Below the pieces are notes generated by a model. That model saw only the letters and a list, made by a program, of their open reading frames with translations, ran no database searches and was not told the origin of the DNA. DNA of 64,000 nucleotides from Gammaproteobacteria bacterium (GTDB lineage Bacteria > Pseudomonadota > Gammaproteobacteria > JADZEE01), in the NCBI GenBank assembly GCA_050183625.1, contig JBFXBD010000006.1, positions 42,653 to 106,652 of the forward strand, read 5' to 3'. Each line of letters starts with the position of its first letter. The first letter of the stretch is position 1. Below are positions 14,674-52,840 of the stretch, one piece after another. Position numbers and translations under genes: made by a program.

Positions 14674-15762
14674 TCATGTGTTCTCGACGACGATTTTCGG
14701 GAAGCGGGCGCTGAAGTCGCGGGCGCGCAGCGCCACCTTTGCGGCGACCCGGCGCGCGATCTCCACGTACTCGCGCGCGGCGGGCGAATCCGGCTCCACC
14801 GCCACCGTCGGCCGGCCATTGTCGACGCCCTCGCGGATGCGGATGTCCAGCGGCAGCGCGCCAAGCAGGTCCACGCCATACTGGCGCGCCATCGCCGCGC
14901 CGCCGCCGCTGCCGAAGATCGGCTCCTCGTGGCCGCAGTGGCTGCATACGTGGGTGCTCATGTTCTCCACGATGCCCAGCACCGGCACGTTGACCTTCTC
15001 GAACATCTTCAGCGCCTTGCGGGCGTCGAGCAGGGCGATGTCCTGGGGGGTGGTGACGATGATGGCGCCGGTGACCGGGATGCTCTGGCAAAGCGTGAGC
15101 TGGATGTCGCCCGTGCCCGGTGGCAGATCGACGACGAGGTAATCGACGTCCTGCCAGCGCGTGTCGTTCAGGAGTTGGTTGAGCGCGCCGGTGGCCATCG
15201 GCCCGCGCCAGATCATGGGCGTCTCCTCGTCCACGAGGTTGCCGATCGAAATCGCCTGCACGCCGTAGCCGATCATCGGCTCCATGGTCTTGCCGTCGCG
15301 GCTTTCCGGGCGGCCGCCGCAGCCGAGCATGCGCGGCTGGCTGGGGCCGTAGACGTCGGCGTCCAGCAGGCCGGCGCGCGCGCCTTCCTGCTGCAGGGCG
15401 ACGGCGAGATTCACCGCCGTGGTCGACTTGCCAACGCCACCCTTGCCGGAGGCGACCGCGATGATGTTCTTCACGCCCGGCAGCGGCTTGGCACTGCGCT
15501 GCACGGCATGCGCGACGATCCGGGAGGTGACGTCGACCGCGACTTCGCGCGCGCCGCTGCCGGCCGCGACCGCCTCGCGGATGCGCGCGGCCAGGGTGGC
15601 GCCGTAGCGCGCTGACGGAAAGCCGAGTTCGATGCCGATCCGGACCCGGTCGGCATCGATCGCAATCGAGGATACGGCCCTGGCGCTGACGAGATCGGTG
15701 CCGAGGTAGGGATCGGGCAGGGCGGCGAGGATGGCTTCGATACGGGGCTTGTCGATGCTCAT
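14674..15762 (-). CDS. apbC: Fe-S cluster carrier ATPase ApbC/Mrp
   Basis: GKGGVGKSTTAVNLA Walker A and a CxxC pair. Divergent from metG as in enterics. Alternative start at 15786. Confidence 0.9.
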   Translation of the reverse strand: MSIDKPRIEAILAALPDPYLGTDLVSARAVSSIAIDADRVRIGIELGFPSARYGATLAARIREAVAAGSGAREVAVDVTSRIVAHAVQRSAKPLPGVKNIIAVASGKGGVGKSTTAVNLAVALQQEGARAGLLDADVYGPSQPRMLGCGGRPESRDGKTMEPMIGYGVQAISIGNLVDEETPMIWRGPMATGALNQLLNDTRWQDVDYLVVDLPPGTGDIQLTLCQSIPVTGAIIVTTPQDIALLDARKALKMFEKVNVPVLGIVENMSTHVCSHCGHEEPIFGSGGGAAMARQYGVDLLGALPLDIRIREGVDNGRPTVAVEPDSPAAREYVEIARRVAAKVALRARDFSARFPKIVVENT

Positions 15763-45912: not shown

Positions 45913-46896
45913 ATGAACGTACGTCAATCGACCCGTTGCGCCGCCGCGCTCGTCCTGGCGCTTGGCGCCGGCAGCGCCGGCGCCCGGACCATCGGCATCA
46001 TGGGCGACAGCCTTTCCGATACCGGCAATCTGTCGGCCGCGCTGAGCTCGGTGTCGTTCGGCCTGGTCGACATCCCGTCGAGCGACACCTACTACCAGGG
46101 CCGGTTCTCCAACGGTCCGATCTGGGTCGATTATCTAGAGTCCGCCAATCCGCAATGGTCCGTGGTCAGCATTGCCGTCGGCGGCGCCTACACCGGCAGG
46201 TACGGTGAAGTCGACAACACGGGAGACAACGATTTCGCGGCGGTGCCGATCTTCGGCGGTGCCTTGCAGAACGCGGCGACCGGGCTGGCGTCGCAGCGGG
46301 ATTCGGTGCCCGACCTGCACGGTACGGACGTTTCCGTGGTGATCTGGGCCGGGGCGAACGACCTGCTGTATGCCGCGGACCTGGGCTACGCAACCGCGTC
46401 CGACATCGTCACTCAGGCCATCGCCAACATCGGCGCGGCGGTCGACGCGATGCTGGCCAAGGGCGCGGACGGCGTGTACGTCGTCAACATGCCGGATCTC
46501 GGGCGCACGCCGCGCGCGCTGGTGGAGGGACGGCAGGGCGAACTGACCGCGGCGGCCAGCCTGTTCAACCAGCAGCTCGCGATCGATGTCATCGACACAG
46601 CCATGGGCGTGCGGCTGATCGACGTCGCCACGCCGTTCGCTGCGCTGCTCGACGCGCCCCTCGACTTCGGGTTCACGAACGTGACCCAGGGTTGCTTGGA
46701 CGATTTGTTCGACACCACGCCCTGCGCCGATGCGCAGGGGTTGTTGTTCTGGGACGAGTTGCATCCAACGACCGCGGGGCACGCCGCGATTGCCCAGGCG
46801 TTCCAGGATGCGCTGGCGCCGGTACCCGTGCCGCCGGCGCTGCCGCTGCTGGCGGGCGGCCTCGCGCTTCTCTGGCGCCGCCGGTCCGCGGCCTGA
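45913..46896 (+). CDS. Secreted SGNH/GDSL lipase/esterase with PEP-CTERM-like C-terminal sorting signal
   Basis: Signal peptide, GDSLSDTGN block I, …GANDL…, and a C-terminal DxxH catalytic pair. The tail reads VPVPPALPLLAGGLALLWRRRSAA: a Pro-rich motif, a hydrophobic helix, then a basic cluster. Confidence 0.75.
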   Translation: MNVRQSTRCAAALVLALGAGSAGARTIGIMGDSLSDTGNLSAALSSVSFGLVDIPSSDTYYQGRFSNGPIWVDYLESANPQWSVVSIAVGGAYTGRYGEVDNTGDNDFAAVPIFGGALQNAATGLASQRDSVPDLHGTDVSVVIWAGANDLLYAADLGYATASDIVTQAIANIGAAVDAMLAKGADGVYVVNMPDLGRTPRALVEGRQGELTAAASLFNQQLAIDVIDTAMGVRLIDVATPFAALLDAPLDFGFTNVTQGCLDDLFDTTPCADAQGLLFWDELHPTTAGHAAIAQAFQDALAPVPVPPALPLLAGGLALLWRRRSAA

Positions 46897-46897
46897 C

Positions 46898-48556
<1,659 letters not shown>

Positions 48557-48655
48557 GGCCGCCACCGAAGGCCGTGGAGCCTGCGGGGGCGCGCATTCGT
48601 CACCGCGGCGGATGTGGGCGGTGCGTCCGTGCGCCGGAGCAGGAGCAATCGGAAG

Positions 48656-49483
48656 ATGAGCGACGCAGAACCCGAAGTGCTGTACACCGCCGCGGATGGC
48701 GTTGCGGTGGTGACGCTCAATCGTCCGGCGGCGCGCAACGCCATGACCTACGAGATGGCGGTGCAGTTGCGGCAGGCGATGCTGCGGGCGCAGGGCGAGG
48801 AAGCCGTGCGAATCGTCGTGCTCACCGGGGCGGGCGCTGCGTTCTGCGTCGGGCTCGACGTCAACGCCATCGTCTCGACCGCCGACCACGGCGCACCGCA
48901 GCGTTACATCGGCGCACTGCACTGGCCGCTCGATCCGGCGATGCGCCACGACTACCAGGCCACGCACAATTATTTCCCGGGCATCGACAAGCCCATCATC
49001 GGCATGCTGAACGGCGCCACGGCCGGCCTCGGCCTCATCTACGCGGCGTTCTGCGACTTGTGCTTCGCCGCCGACAGCGCGGTGTTCAGCACCAGCTTCG
49101 CCCGCCGGGCGGTCGCGGCGGAGTACGGCATCGCGTGGTTGCTGCCGCGCCTGGTCGGGCAGGCGCGGGCGGCGGATCTGCTGCTGTCCGCGCGCAGGTT
49201 CGATGCGGCGGAGGCACTGCAAATCGGGCTCGTGGCGCGCGTGTATCCACGTGCCCGCCTGGAGGCGGAAACGATGGCGTACGCGCAGGACATCGCGCTC
49301 AATTGCGGGCCGCTGGCGCTGAGCGCCATCAAGCGCCAGCTCTGGGAGGCGCCGTTCCAGACGCTCGCCGAAGCCAACATGCTGTACAAGCGCCTGCTGA
49401 AGACCTGCACGGATTCCGCCGATCTGCGTGAAGCCGCGCTCAGCTTCCTGGAGAAGCGTCCGCCGCGATTCACCGGGCGGTGA
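48656..49483 (+). CDS. Enoyl-CoA hydratase/isomerase
   Basis: Crotonase fold (VVTLNRPAARNAM…GAGAAFCVGLD). Confidence 0.85.
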   Translation: MSDAEPEVLYTAADGVAVVTLNRPAARNAMTYEMAVQLRQAMLRAQGEEAVRIVVLTGAGAAFCVGLDVNAIVSTADHGAPQRYIGALHWPLDPAMRHDYQATHNYFPGIDKPIIGMLNGATAGLGLIYAAFCDLCFAADSAVFSTSFARRAVAAEYGIAWLLPRLVGQARAADLLLSARRFDAAEALQIGLVARVYPRARLEAETMAYAQDIALNCGPLALSAIKRQLWEAPFQTLAEANMLYKRLLKTCTDSADLREAALSFLEKRPPRFTGR

Positions 49484-49560
49484 GTGCGCGGGAACGCGGC
49501 GGACCTGACCGGCGATGCCGGGCGGTGTTTCATGGCCCGCCGCGATCCGCGGCGCGAGGC

Positions 49561-50625
49561 TCAGGGTTGTGCCTGGTAGACCAGGTTGAACGGCGTATGG
49601 CAGGCCCGGCGGAAGCGGGTGAAGCCGGCGTCGGTGACGACCGCGCGCATCCTTGCTTCGCCGGCCTGCGCGCCGAGCGCCAGCCCCACCTCCTGGGCCA
49701 TCGAGCAGGGCGTGCAGATCAGGGTGGAGCCGGCGTAGAAAGCCCGTCCGATCGGATTGAGGTTCTCCTCCACCCGATCGCCGGCGTAGGGTTCGACGAT
49801 CATCCACGAGCCCTGCGGCGCGAGCGCGGACAGGACGTGGCGCGAAGCGCCCACCGGATCGCCCATGTCGTGCAGCGCGTCGAACACGGTGATGAAGTCG
49901 TATCCGGTGCCGGCGAACGTCTTGGCGGTCGACACCTCGAACCGGCAGCGCCCGGCCACGCCCGCCTCGCGTGCGCGCTCGCGCGCGGTGGCGATCGATT
50001 CGGCATGGCCGTCGAAGCCGATGAATTCGGACTCGGGGTAGGCCCGTGCCATCAGGATGGTCGATGCGCCGTGGCCGCAGCCGATGTCCGCGACCTGCGC
50101 GCCGGCCAGCAAACGTTCGTGCATCCCGTTCACGGCCGGGATCCAGTGCTGGATCAGGTTGCCGACGTAGCCGGGGCGGAAGAAGCGCTCGATGCCATGG
50201 AACAAGGCGTGATCGTGCTCGTGCCAGCCGACGCCTTCGCCGCTGCGGAAGGCGTCGGCGAGCCGGTCGTGGATGCGGCTCGCGGCCAGCGTGGTCTGGA
50301 AGGCGCCGACCACGAACGCGGGGCTTTCCTCGTCGGCGAACATCGCCGCCTGCTCGGGCGTGAGCACGTAGCGGCCGCTCGGTGCGAGGTACTGCACGTA
50401 GCCGGAAGCCGCGTGCGCGTTCAGCCACTCGCGTACGTAGCGCTCGTGGGTGCCGGTTCGATCGGCCAGTTCGGTGGATGTCATGGCGCCGTGGTCGGCG
50501 AGCGCACGATACAGCCCGAGCCGGTCGCCGATCAGCACCAGCGGGGCTAGCGAGACGGCGCCGAAGTCGACGATGGCCCGTCCGAGCAGTTCATTGAGCT
50601 TGGATTCGTCAATGCGGGTTTGCAT
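49561..50625 (-). CDS. Class I SAM-dependent methyltransferase with N-terminal winged-helix dimerisation domain
   Basis: VADIGCGHGAST motif I. Start set at MQTRIDE (50625) with an AGGAGG RBS. The ORF extends to 50973 into repeat DNA. Confidence 0.75.
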   Translation of the reverse strand: MQTRIDESKLNELLGRAIVDFGAVSLAPLVLIGDRLGLYRALADHGAMTSTELADRTGTHERYVREWLNAHAASGYVQYLAPSGRYVLTPEQAAMFADEESPAFVVGAFQTTLAASRIHDRLADAFRSGEGVGWHEHDHALFHGIERFFRPGYVGNLIQHWIPAVNGMHERLLAGAQVADIGCGHGASTILMARAYPESEFIGFDGHAESIATARERAREAGVAGRCRFEVSTAKTFAGTGYDFITVFDALHDMGDPVGASRHVLSALAPQGSWMIVEPYAGDRVEENLNPIGRAFYAGSTLICTPCSMAQEVGLALGAQAGEARMRAVVTDAGFTRFRRACHTPFNLVYQAQP

Positions 50626-50848
50626 GAGTGCCTCCTTCGGGTTCAACGAGCCCGCATTCTCGGCTCGACTCCAGGCCGGTGCTTTGCAGCGCGGCCGCGA
50701 TAATTGACCGATGCGCGCGTGAACGCCGCGCGCTTGACCGCCCGGCCGGAAACATTGCCTGCGCGGCCGGCGATCAGTGAACCGCCCCGGGTCATCGCGA
50801 GGCCGAACCGGGGTGGCCCCGGCCGATTGCAGCCATGATCCGCGCCTT

Positions 50849-51149
50849 CGTCGTCGCGAGCGCAGCGAAGCGACCCACGCGGCCTCGATGGCGGCGGCGC
50901 GTGGATTGCTTCGTCGCTTCGCTCCTCGCAATGACGGCGTGCGGTTCCTGGATAGCGCAGCGAAGCAATGCATGCCGCCTCGACATCGTTGGCGAAGCGT
51001 GGGTGGCCGCGCCCGCTACGCGGGCTCGCAACGACGGAGTGCGGTTCAGGCGTTGGCGGCGCTGCGGCCGCTGCAATCCACGCGCAGCCGGTGGCATCGA
51101 GGCCGCTTGGGTCGCTTCGCTGCGCTCGCGACGACGAATCGCGGGCATG
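50849..51149. repeat. MITE/REP-like element of about 300 bp bounded by about 50 bp imperfect terminal inverted repeats, with internal direct repeats and hairpins
   Basis: 50849–50899 TTCGTCGTCGCGAGCGCAGCGAAGCGACCCACGCGGCCTCGATGG is the reverse complement (about 90% identity) of 51099–51149. Two internal direct repeats are present: GCGCAGCGAAGC…GCCTCGA twice, and CGCAA(T/C)GACGG(C/A)GTGCGGTTC twice. Confidence 0.6.
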
Positions 51150-51225
51150 TGACGGCGTCCGGGTGCGCCCGCAAACGGCTGCGCGGGCGGGCCGTCGCGG
51201 TGCCGGCCGGCCTCTGGTAGTCTGA

Positions 51226-52230
51226 TTGGCGATGGACGCTCTCTCGGAGCTTCTGCGCGCCGTCAAGCTGTCCGGCGCGATGTTCTTCAATGCCGAGTGC
51301 GTGGCGCCCTGGTGCGTGCGATCGCCGGCGTCCGAGGCGTTCGCTCCCTACGTCGCCACGGCCGCCAGCCGGATCATCGAGTTTCATCTCATCGCCGACG
51401 GGCGCGGCTACATCCGGGTCGGCGAGGAGGCGACGCCGCTGACCGCCGGCGACATCGTCATGCTTCCGCATGGTGATCCGCACTTCATGGGCAACGGACA
51501 GGGCGGTGAAACCGTCGACGGTTCGGCGGACCTGCCCAGGATGCTCAGTGGCCGGATCGAACTCTCCCGGATGGGGGGCGGGGAAGGCGAACGCACGCGC
51601 CTGATCTGCGGCTATCTCGCCTGCGAGGCGCGGATGATCCTACGCGTGCTGGCGGGGTTGCCACGCGTGCTGCGCGTCCACATACGCCAGGATCCGTATG
51701 GCGAGCTGCTCGAGAACATGATCCGCCACGCGGTCAATCAGGTCACCGACGCAACGCCGGGCGGCGATGCGATCGCGGCCCGCATGGCGGAAGTCCTGTT
51801 CGCCGAGGTGTTGCGCCGCTACGTGCTGCAATTGCCCTCGGGCCGTACCGGCTGGCTGGCCGGCGCGGCCGATCCCGGCATCGGCAGGGCGCTCGCGGCC
51901 ATGCACCAGCGGCCGGGGCATGCATGGTCCCTGGACCTTCTGGCACGCGAGGCGGGCGTGTCGCGCTCGGTGCTCACGGAGCGCTTCGCGCGTTATCTCG
52001 GCCAGGCCCCGATGGCCTATCTGGCCGACTGGCGCCTGGAACTGGGTGCCGAGTCGCTGCGCACCACCAGCCGCAGCGTGGTGCAGATCGCCGAGGAAGT
52101 GGGGTACGAGTCGCAGGCCGCCTTCAATCGCGCTTTCAAGCGCCGGTTTTCCACCCCGCCGGCCCGCTATCGCCGGAGCTGGAGGACCGGGCGCCCGCAG
52201 GGCGAGCGCTTCGGCGAACAACTGCGCTGA
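51226..52230 (+). CDS. AraC/XylS-family transcriptional regulator (N-terminal cupin sensor + C-terminal HTH)
   Basis: C-terminal dual HTH with AraC signature (…SVVQIAEEVGYESQAAFNRAFKRRF…). Confidence 0.85.
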   Translation: MAMDALSELLRAVKLSGAMFFNAECVAPWCVRSPASEAFAPYVATAASRIIEFHLIADGRGYIRVGEEATPLTAGDIVMLPHGDPHFMGNGQGGETVDGSADLPRMLSGRIELSRMGGGEGERTRLICGYLACEARMILRVLAGLPRVLRVHIRQDPYGELLENMIRHAVNQVTDATPGGDAIAARMAEVLFAEVLRRYVLQLPSGRTGWLAGAADPGIGRALAAMHQRPGHAWSLDLLAREAGVSRSVLTERFARYLGQAPMAYLADWRLELGAESLRTTSRSVVQIAEEVGYESQAAFNRAFKRRFSTPPARYRRSWRTGRPQGERFGEQLR

Positions 52231-52278: not shown

Positions 52279-52794
52279 TCAGGCCGGGGTCGGAAATCCC
52301 AGCGCCTTCCACTTCTCGGCGTTCGCGGCCACGCCGTCGGCGATCGCCTTCCAGCGCGCGGGGCTGGTCTCGGTGATTCTCATGTCGAACGAGGTGGCGC
52401 CGCGGAACTCCAGCACTTCCACCCCGTCGGGCCCGGCCTCGTAGCCGTAGGGCTGGTGGGCCGGCAGGAAGAAGCCGCCGCCGGCTTCGAACGTGCGGTT
52501 GCCCATGCGCAGGCTGCCGGCAACGACGTAGTACAGGCAGTCGACGTCATGGGTGTGGCGCACGAGCTTGAAGTCCGGCGCGAAGCGCAGGCGCACCAGG
52601 CTCAGGCCGGCCTTGGGATCGCAGAACACGACGCGCATGTCCGCGCCCTGGGCGAGCAGCGCGCCGGTCGCCTCGGGGTCGATTCCGGGCGGGAACGTGA
52701 TCGGCTGCATGATCTCGTAGTTGTCGGCGACGGCGTTGCCGTCGAACGTCGAAAACCGGGCATCGTCTGCTGTTTCGGTTGCGGTCGTGTTCAT
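52279..52794 (-). CDS. Cupin-domain protein
   Basis: Small beta-barrel cupin with HTHD…YYV region, 171 aa. Confidence 0.6.
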   Translation of the reverse strand: MNTTATETADDARFSTFDGNAVADNYEIMQPITFPPGIDPEATGALLAQGADMRVVFCDPKAGLSLVRLRFAPDFKLVRHTHDVDCLYYVVAGSLRMGNRTFEAGGGFFLPAHQPYGYEAGPDGVEVLEFRGATSFDMRITETSPARWKAIADGVAANAEKWKALGFPTPA

Positions 52795-52840
52795 CCGAAT
52801 GGCTCCTGATGGCGGTCGGGCCGATGGCTGGAGCGCACCT

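Follow-up and report, generated by a model that had tools for sequence, protein, structure and literature searches.

Among the short palindromic repeats described in bacteria, the closest to those analysed here are the CGTC-tagged REPs of Di Nocera, De Gregorio and Rocco (2013, BMC Genomics 14:522, PMC3733652), which comprise the families CGTC-1 to CGTC-4 and include dRS3 of Neisseria and RPE-4 and RPE-6 of Rickettsia. As set out in the text of that paper, these repeats carry an unpaired CGTC tag (in some copies TGTC or CCTC), a stem that starts with A-T and T-A pairs and a short unpaired CCA tail, they occur in many dispersed, largely intergenic copies per genome, mainly as head-to-head dimers able to fold as one larger hairpin, and the published families have a continuous stem of 8-9 bp closed by a loop of 4-5 nt. 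The same text places them mostly in Alphaproteobacteria, with further occurrences in beta and gamma species, and describes them without an associated or dedicated transposase and without reporting a RAYT (PMC3733652). Three other kinds of repeat invite comparison with our locus, namely the REPINs and GTAG-type REPs that occur with a RAYT (a Y1 HUH transposase whose gene usually has copies of the same REPs on its flanks), the mosaic clusters known as BIMEs in enterobacteria and as RIMEs in Sinorhizobium, and the bacterial MITEs such as Correia (CREE) and ERIC. The RIMEs were reportedly described by Osteras in 1995.

The region under study, positions 50626-51225 of the 64-kb stretch of DNA that was analysed (called the window throughout), is intergenic and separates two divergent genes. 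These code for a methyltransferase and an AraC-family regulator, as the preliminary description of this DNA had claimed when it placed a repeat element in the divergent promoter region of an AraC-regulated locus, and both the gene assignments and the placement are borne out by domain annotation (Table 1). We consider the region, with a probability of roughly 0.8, to be a BIME-like cluster in which a CGTC-tagged palindromic unit of REP type forms three dimers. An exact-protein look-up of the methyltransferase returned no record. The neighbouring genes were read at 46730-48556 and 52279-54425; the upstream neighbour is an AMP-binding enzyme, and genes for a Cupin_7-like protein, a PhyH dioxygenase and a Polyketide_cyc2 protein follow the AraC gene on the minus strand. 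No candidate ORF within 48574-49540 had a Pfam match, and in relatives PpoB2 and DUF1326 genes adjoin the methyltransferase gene.

Table 1. Positions of the repeat units and other features of the methyltransferase-AraC intergenic region in the window
Feature	Positions	Strand	Evidence or remark
Rv2258c-like winged-HTH (wHTH) + SAM methyltransferase gene	49561-50625	minus	Domain annotation
Ancestral half of the intergenic region (context, outside the element)	50626-50775		Alignment with five relatives
Extra DNA with the repeat cluster, ~437 bp	50776-51212		Borders approximately +/-10 bp
Hairpin CCGGGG-TGG-CCCCGG	50808-50822		Outside the units, on the left side of the extra DNA; occurs once in the window
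Left arm of the inverted repeat (U1 + half of spacer A)	50847-50898		Inverted-repeat search
U1, intact L-type: CGTC GTCGC GAG CGCAGC GAA GCGAC CCA	50849-50877	+	nhmmer E = 5e-9
Spacer of dimer A, holds GCGGCCTCGATG	50878-50901	+	Same 12-mer inverted beside U5
U2, intact R-type: CGTC ATTGC GAG GAGCGAAGCGAC GAA GCAAT CCA	50902-50936	-	nhmmer E = 1.5e-5
Flank GCGTGCGGTTC after U2, repeated after U4 (51037-51047)	50937-50947	+	Direct repeat D2, 91%
U3, decayed, 3' two-thirds only: TAG CGCAGC GAA GCAAT GCA	50953-50972	+	nhmmer E = 0.006, model positions 13-28; D1
U4, R-type variant: CGTC GTTGC GAG [GCCCGC-GTA-GCGGGC] GCG GCCAC CCA	51000-51036	-	Parse; partial nhmmer match, E = 0.05
U6, remnant of the U5 partner: GCAAT CCA only	51073-51080	+	Left half aligned to the reverse complement of the right half
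Right arm of the inverted repeat (half of spacer C + U5)	51087-51138		Inverted-repeat search
U5, intact L-type, identical to U1	51108-51136	-	nhmmer E = 4.5e-9
Palindrome GCGCCCGC-AAACGGCT-GCGCGGGC	51165-51188		Outside the units, on the right side of the extra DNA; occurs once in the window
Cupin_6 + HTH_18 AraC-family regulator gene	51232-52230	plus	Domain annotation

Among inverted repeats of 30 nt or more, the strongest that the window contains lies in this region and consists of two 52-nt arms, 92% complementary and 188 nt apart. The preliminary description had reported inverted arms of about 50 bp and about 90% identity; the arms exist, with the correction that the right one, given as 51099-51149, had been placed about 12 nt away from its true position. 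It had further named two families of direct repeats, and both are present: D1 (50859-50899 against 50954-50994) with 76% identity, and D2 (50925-50947 against 51025-51047) with 91%, the 23-mer of D2 being found 0.00 times in shuffled sequences. Equally real are the GC hairpins it listed, among them GCCCGCTACGCGGGC at 51011-51025, which is the inner hairpin of the unit U4, and the additional palindrome downstream. The folding that it proposed, carried out on the 306-nt core as single-stranded DNA, gave -138 kcal/mol (z = -14.5 against shuffles), and its view that the ORFs across the region are implausible agrees with the one ORF tested, of 147 aa on the plus strand, for which no homologue was found among 5.8 billion proteins. 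A longer palindrome spanning to the borders of the extra DNA was considered and rejected, the alignment being unconvincing beyond 50830-50910. Only one other inverted repeat in the window reaches 30 nt, an overlapping palindrome of 31 nt (84%) at 15354-15403.

Each arm contains a copy of a 29-nt unit, of which the region holds five to six copies, in both orientations, between 50849 and 51136. Its frame consists of CGTC, a 5-nt stem strand, GAG, a GC-GNA-GC mini-hairpin, GAA, the opposite 5-nt stem strand and CCA, so that an outer stem, either ATTGC/GCAAT or GTCGC/GCGAC, encloses a GAG/GAA purine internal loop. Units measure about 29-35 nt, and in the longer R type a variable inner stem of 5-6 bp, forming an inner hairpin of 12-18 nt, replaces the GC-GNA-GC core of the L type. 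When the window was tested by nhmmer with an HMM trained on units from outside the window alone, five matches were obtained, all of them within 50847-51138 (E-values in Table 1), and the remainder of the 64 kb gave no further significant match to the unit; the window thus holds a single cluster. The label "REP-like", used from the beginning for this element, was right. A sixth unit, U0 (GTCATCGCGAG at 50791), was considered and rejected: its nhmmer E-value is 2.4, and locus L002 has a similar sequence at the homologous place.

Read in the order U1, U2, U3, U4, U6, U5, the units alternate in orientation (+ - + - + -) and pair into three dimers of about 90-100 bp each. Dimer A, formed by U1 and U2 (50849-50936), is an intact tail-to-tail hairpin with a fold z of -3.3. 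Dimer B, formed by U3 and U4, is a decayed and diverged tandem copy followed by the same 11-nt right flank, and dimer C, formed by U6 and U5, is inverted and truncated, with the same GCGGCCTCGATG in its spacer as dimer A. The spacer motif GCCTCGA is found in all three dimers, and U1, U2, U4 and U5 all open with CGTC and close with CCA. U2, whose inner segment is 12 nt long, shows 90.7% identity to a copy on a Methylosinus plasmid and shares the outer stem ATTGC/GCAAT with most family members, and U1 and U5 have GTCGC/GCGAC. The recurrence of GCGTGCGGTTC after both U2 and U4 points to a local tandem duplication of about 100 bp that comprised a dimer plus its flank. U1 and U5, for their part, share an exact inverted identity of 31 nt, and the apparent 52-nt terminal inverted repeat is thus an inverted duplication of U1 together with half of its spacer.

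The unit belongs to a dispersed family. A plasmid BLAST with the region as query gave matches only in Alphaproteobacteria, over the U1-U2 dimer (Methylosinus, Methylocystis, Novosphingobium and Methylobacterium); none of these plasmid copies lies under an annotated gene, and one Novosphingobium replicon of 1.76 Mb carries the repeat at nine places. In genome contigs the exact U1 core was found at no fewer than six Methylobacterium loci, and a slightly degenerate unit core was found in 29 viral or GTA-like contigs of IMG/VR. The plasmid, Methylobacterium and IMG/VR loci together provided a family set of 36 distinct units and about 40 distinct dimers (units in L007-L047). The dispersed form in these genomes is a dimer of 71-99 nt in which two units are joined tail-to-tail over a spacer of 10-40 nt. 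The tag is CGTC in 30 of the 36 units and TGTC in 5, and 27 of the 36 end in the CCA tail. Partial R-type matches (33-39 nt, 87-91%) in the gammaproteobacterial replicons of Legionella lytica (H31) and Halomonas sp. PA16-9 (H33) indicate that the family is not confined to Alphaproteobacteria.

Dimers of the family also form tandem arrays, with a period of 156 and 2.9 copies in L039 and L047, and with a period of 108 in L038. Given such arrays elsewhere, clusters like the one at 50849-51136 are a normal state of the family. The L039 and L047 arrays (L039:2991-3441 and L047:4360-4810, 92% matches) are mosaics, each period combining a CGTC dimer with a second, unrelated palindromic repeat, CATCCTTCGAGGCTCGCTGCGCTCGCACTTCAGGATG, in the manner of a BIME- or RIME-like mosaic of two families. 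In IMG/VR contigs with GTA/phage-like head-tail clusters, CGTC-type dimers occupy short gaps that separate cluster genes of the same direction (L019, L020, L021, L032, L034, L035, L036, L040 and L044; examples are L035:4816-4901, L020:5183-5258 and L036:6970-7055), the gaps being those between terminase and portal, between tail completion and tail tube, and beside the capsid gene. All three independent heterodimers for which the gene direction is known (L020, L035/L044 and L021) have the L-type unit first along transcription. This polarity hints at a strand-specific, possibly RNA-level role.

Comparison across the family set informs the structure of the unit. Any base may stand in the middle of the GNA loop, where family units show C, G, A and T, and the inner stems of the R type vary yet remain paired (GAGGC/GCCTC, GGCGC/GCGCC, GGGGC/GCCCC, CCCGC/GCGGG); the free loop base and the variable inner stems argue for a structural constraint that acts on the unit. 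In the outer stem, pairing holds in 96.6% of cells and drops to 15-66% once the 3' partner is slid, and compensatory AU<->GC and UA<->CG changes are seen at pairs 1 and 3, two of the five pairs, which may reflect one or two events. Under nearest-neighbour DNA parameters single units are not more stable than shuffled sequences (z about +0.5), and the case for structure at the unit level is therefore entirely a comparative one. The L-type core GC-GNA-GC is the motif of the d(GCGNAGC) DNA mini-hairpins, which Hirao and colleagues reportedly found to be unusually stable, and such stability receives no credit from standard folding parameters. The unit d(CGTCATTGCGAGCGCAGCGAAGCAATCCA) is predicted to fold as a stem, a G·A internal loop and a GNA triloop.

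Set against the published CGTC-tagged REPs, as these are described in the text of Di Nocera et al. (2013), the unit shows the same CGTC/TGTC 5' tag, A-T or T-A first pairs in most copies and an unpaired CCA. It shares with them a predominance of inverted dimers with spacers of 10-40 nt, both homodimers and heterodimers, and occasional clusters, as well as an intergenic location, a distribution mostly in Alphaproteobacteria with additional beta and gamma occurrences, and the lack of a flanking transposase. It differs from the continuous stem given in that text by its 5-bp outer stem, GAG/GAA purine internal loop, 2-bp inner stem and 3-nt loop, and by an R variant with a variable inner hairpin of 12-18 nt. 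In its outer frame, CGTC-ATTGC...GCAAT-CCA, the unit probably coincides with CGTC-3, a comparison made by back-translating the R. palustris peptide VIAGLDPAIH from the supplement to that paper; among the peptides of the supplement, none of the GC-GNA-GC subtype was found. The best-supported assignment, judged from architecture and from the families as described in the text, is to the CGTC-tagged REP superfamily, and the unit is filed at that level only. Neither the unit sequence nor GCGAAGC led to anything relevant in the literature.

The REPINs and GTAG-type REPs with a RAYT, or TnpA-REP (Nunvar 2010; Bertels & Rainey 2011; Ton-Hoang 2012), resemble our repeats in that two inverted palindromic units forming a hairpin of about 70-100 nt are the dispersed form, and both are non-coding and show local decay of one partner. 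They differ in the tag, which here is CGTC rather than GTAG (or GTGG), and in the RAYT, since a tblastn search of the 64-kb window with two RAYT sequences gave a best E of 0.57 and no RAYT was found there. Like the BIMEs of enterobacteria, the region is a mosaic in which clustered REP units alternate in orientation and spacers recur, and the arrays of the CGTC-type unit in other genomes (periods 156 and 108) extend this likeness. The units and spacers are, however, unrelated in sequence to those of E. coli, and two of the three dimers here are decayed. The RIMEs of Sinorhizobium are likewise mosaic clusters of units in alternating orientation. REPs are typically found downstream of genes, whereas the cluster described here lies between divergent ones, a position that is atypical for them.

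Orthologous loci place the cluster in an evolutionary frame. The methyltransferase-AraC spacers of relatives measure 158-240 bp and contain no unit, and none was found in the roughly 49 kb of relatives' loci examined; the comparison of orthologous intergenic regions that had been suggested thus finds the element not conserved at this site. When 50776-51212 was deleted in silico, the spacer of the window became collinear with those of L006, L016 and L018 along its whole length, from which it follows that the approximately 437 bp are lineage-specific extra DNA. Its borders are approximate, because even the closest orthologues have only 75-77% AraC protein identity, and the outer ~70 bp on each side contain no recognisable units.

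The extra DNA leaves intact the half of the spacer that adjoins the methyltransferase gene. In this half, the alignment shows four TTG-containing blocks (GCTTTGC, AATTGAC, GCTTGACCG and CATTGCC) that are kept in all five related loci; they lie within 50680-50760, with TTG at 50684, 50704, 50734 and 50755 and thus a spacing of 20-30 bp, and the repeat cluster lies just past them. These blocks are candidate AraC-type binding sites or candidate -35 elements of the divergent promoters, and the half that holds them is a candidate promoter and AraC-type operator module. On the other side of the cluster, a -10-like hexamer, TAGTCT at 51218, just 5' of the AraC ATG, is likewise collinear with relatives in the alignment. 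A scan of 50500-51400 for promoter and terminator consensus sequences detected nothing, and the statements on promoters made here are therefore drawn from the alignment. A 15-bp tandem repeat, GCGCGCGTGAACGCC, occurs in two copies (86%) at 50713-50742, inside the conserved half.

Taken as a cluster of REP dimers, the region may have originated when dimers entered the promoter region as non-autonomous mobile DNA, the cluster then growing by local duplication and inversion at the hairpins. The 290-bp core comprises an intact dimer (U1-U2), its diverged tandem copy (U3-U4) and an inverted, truncated copy (U6-U5), and on this reading the youngest event was the inverted duplication of U1 and spacer that gave rise to the 52-nt "terminal inverted repeat". 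We presume the cluster to be mainly selfish or neutral DNA. A likely side effect of its presence would be that the ancestral AraC -35-like block (TTG at 50755) has been separated from the -10-like TAGTCT at 51218. In addition, the strong hairpins could form a cruciform barrier between or inside the divergent transcription units, or a structured leader, and in these ways the cluster may affect regulation of the AraC-methyltransferase locus.

The further proposition that this gammaproteobacterial lineage otherwise lacks CGTC-type REP dimers and acquired those of the cluster recently appears unlikely. Recent activity would be suggested by the 31-nt exact identity of U1 and U5, and an otherwise repeat-free lineage by the lack of units both in the ~49 kb of relatives and elsewhere in the 64-kb window. 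If this proposition were true, very few genomic copies would exist beside a still-active mobilising function, which would offer a clean route to the long-missing enzyme that moves CGTC repeats. The extra DNA may in addition have split the ancestral AraC promoter (-35 block at 50755, -10-like TAGTCT at 51218), with autoregulation of the locus rewired.

We regard it as quite improbable that the region is instead a set of regulatory palindromes belonging to the host, or a structured RNA (a 5' leader, an sRNA or an insulator) selected for control of the AraC-methyltransferase pair. Its location in the divergent promoter region and its extremely stable fold would suit such a role, as would the L-to-R polarity of dimers A and B, which matches the direction of the AraC gene. 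Nevertheless, all orthologous loci recovered lack the block and keep a short spacer, two of the three dimers are decayed, and the same sequence is common to repeats of distant taxa in unrelated contexts. The structured-RNA possibility raised in the preliminary description also finds no support in Rfam: a search of the whole window gave zero matches at gathering score, and with a cut-off of E <= 10 the region matched only hairpin look-alikes from plant and animal miRNAs, all far below threshold, the best being MIR839 with 42 bits against a gathering score of 200.

Very improbable, too, is the interpretation that had been put first, of a single MITE of about 300 bp with 52-bp terminal inverted repeats, moved as a whole by a DDE-type transposase. 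The long terminal inverted repeat and the absence of the block from orthologous loci are what such an element would show, and the region resembles bacterial MITEs (Correia/CREE, ERIC) in its small size, its non-coding and palindromic sequence, its presence/absence variation among related genomes and its position in a promoter region. However, the arms are built from a smaller unit that occurs three or four more times within the block, and the family members elsewhere are dimers of 71-99 nt, not elements of 300 bp. No full-length copy of the block was found in the window, in the relatives' loci, among homologues of the translated composite (the 147-aa ORF), or in pattern scans of JGI metagenomes, where both the unit-plus-spacer and the unit-plus-duplicated-flank patterns had zero matches. 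The check for target-site duplications that the MITE idea called for reveals none abutting the arms, whose flanks, CCGCGCC and TCGCGGG, continue the palindrome without an adjacent direct repeat. The 8-mer CGGCCGGC does occur at both borders of the 437-bp extra DNA (50764-50771 and 51204-51211), which would favour insertion of a single element, but it is a common word in the window (29 occurrences in 64 kb, 0.45 per kb) and its copies stand about 70 bp outside the arms, beyond sequence that is not made of units, so that we rejected it as a target-site duplication. Readings as attC, CRISPR or iterons were dropped on sequence grounds.

An artefact of assembly, that is, a chimeric or duplicated hairpin in what is a metagenome-assembled genome, is highly improbable: an independent Logan contig does break inside the repeat (L001, from SRR27751815, ending at 51110), but it does so 2 nt inside the 31-nt exact inverted repeat (51108-51138), exactly as a k=31 graph predicts, and over its 4121 bp of overlap with the window, in which U5 and the right flank are included, the identity is 100%, which shows that the right part of the structure is not the product of one assembler, and moreover the units are diverged from each other and match a real family, and the arms are shorter than a read. 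The end of this contig is in itself a small example of how such repeats fragment k=31 assemblies.

We conclude that the cluster is a repeat of an ordinary selfish or structural kind in a new place, and not a new mobile element. As one more case of a class of short palindromic repeats that is widespread and has been described before, the locus carries little wider consequence, and, taken by itself, this window brings us no closer to the way in which CGTC repeats move. It nevertheless documents a CGTC-type unit with a GC-GNA-GC mini-hairpin core, and shows that a cluster of REP dimers can mimic a MITE with long terminal inverted repeats. Lying between a conserved, operator-like block and the start of the AraC gene, the cluster would also provide a natural experiment on the behaviour of REP clusters at divergent promoters.
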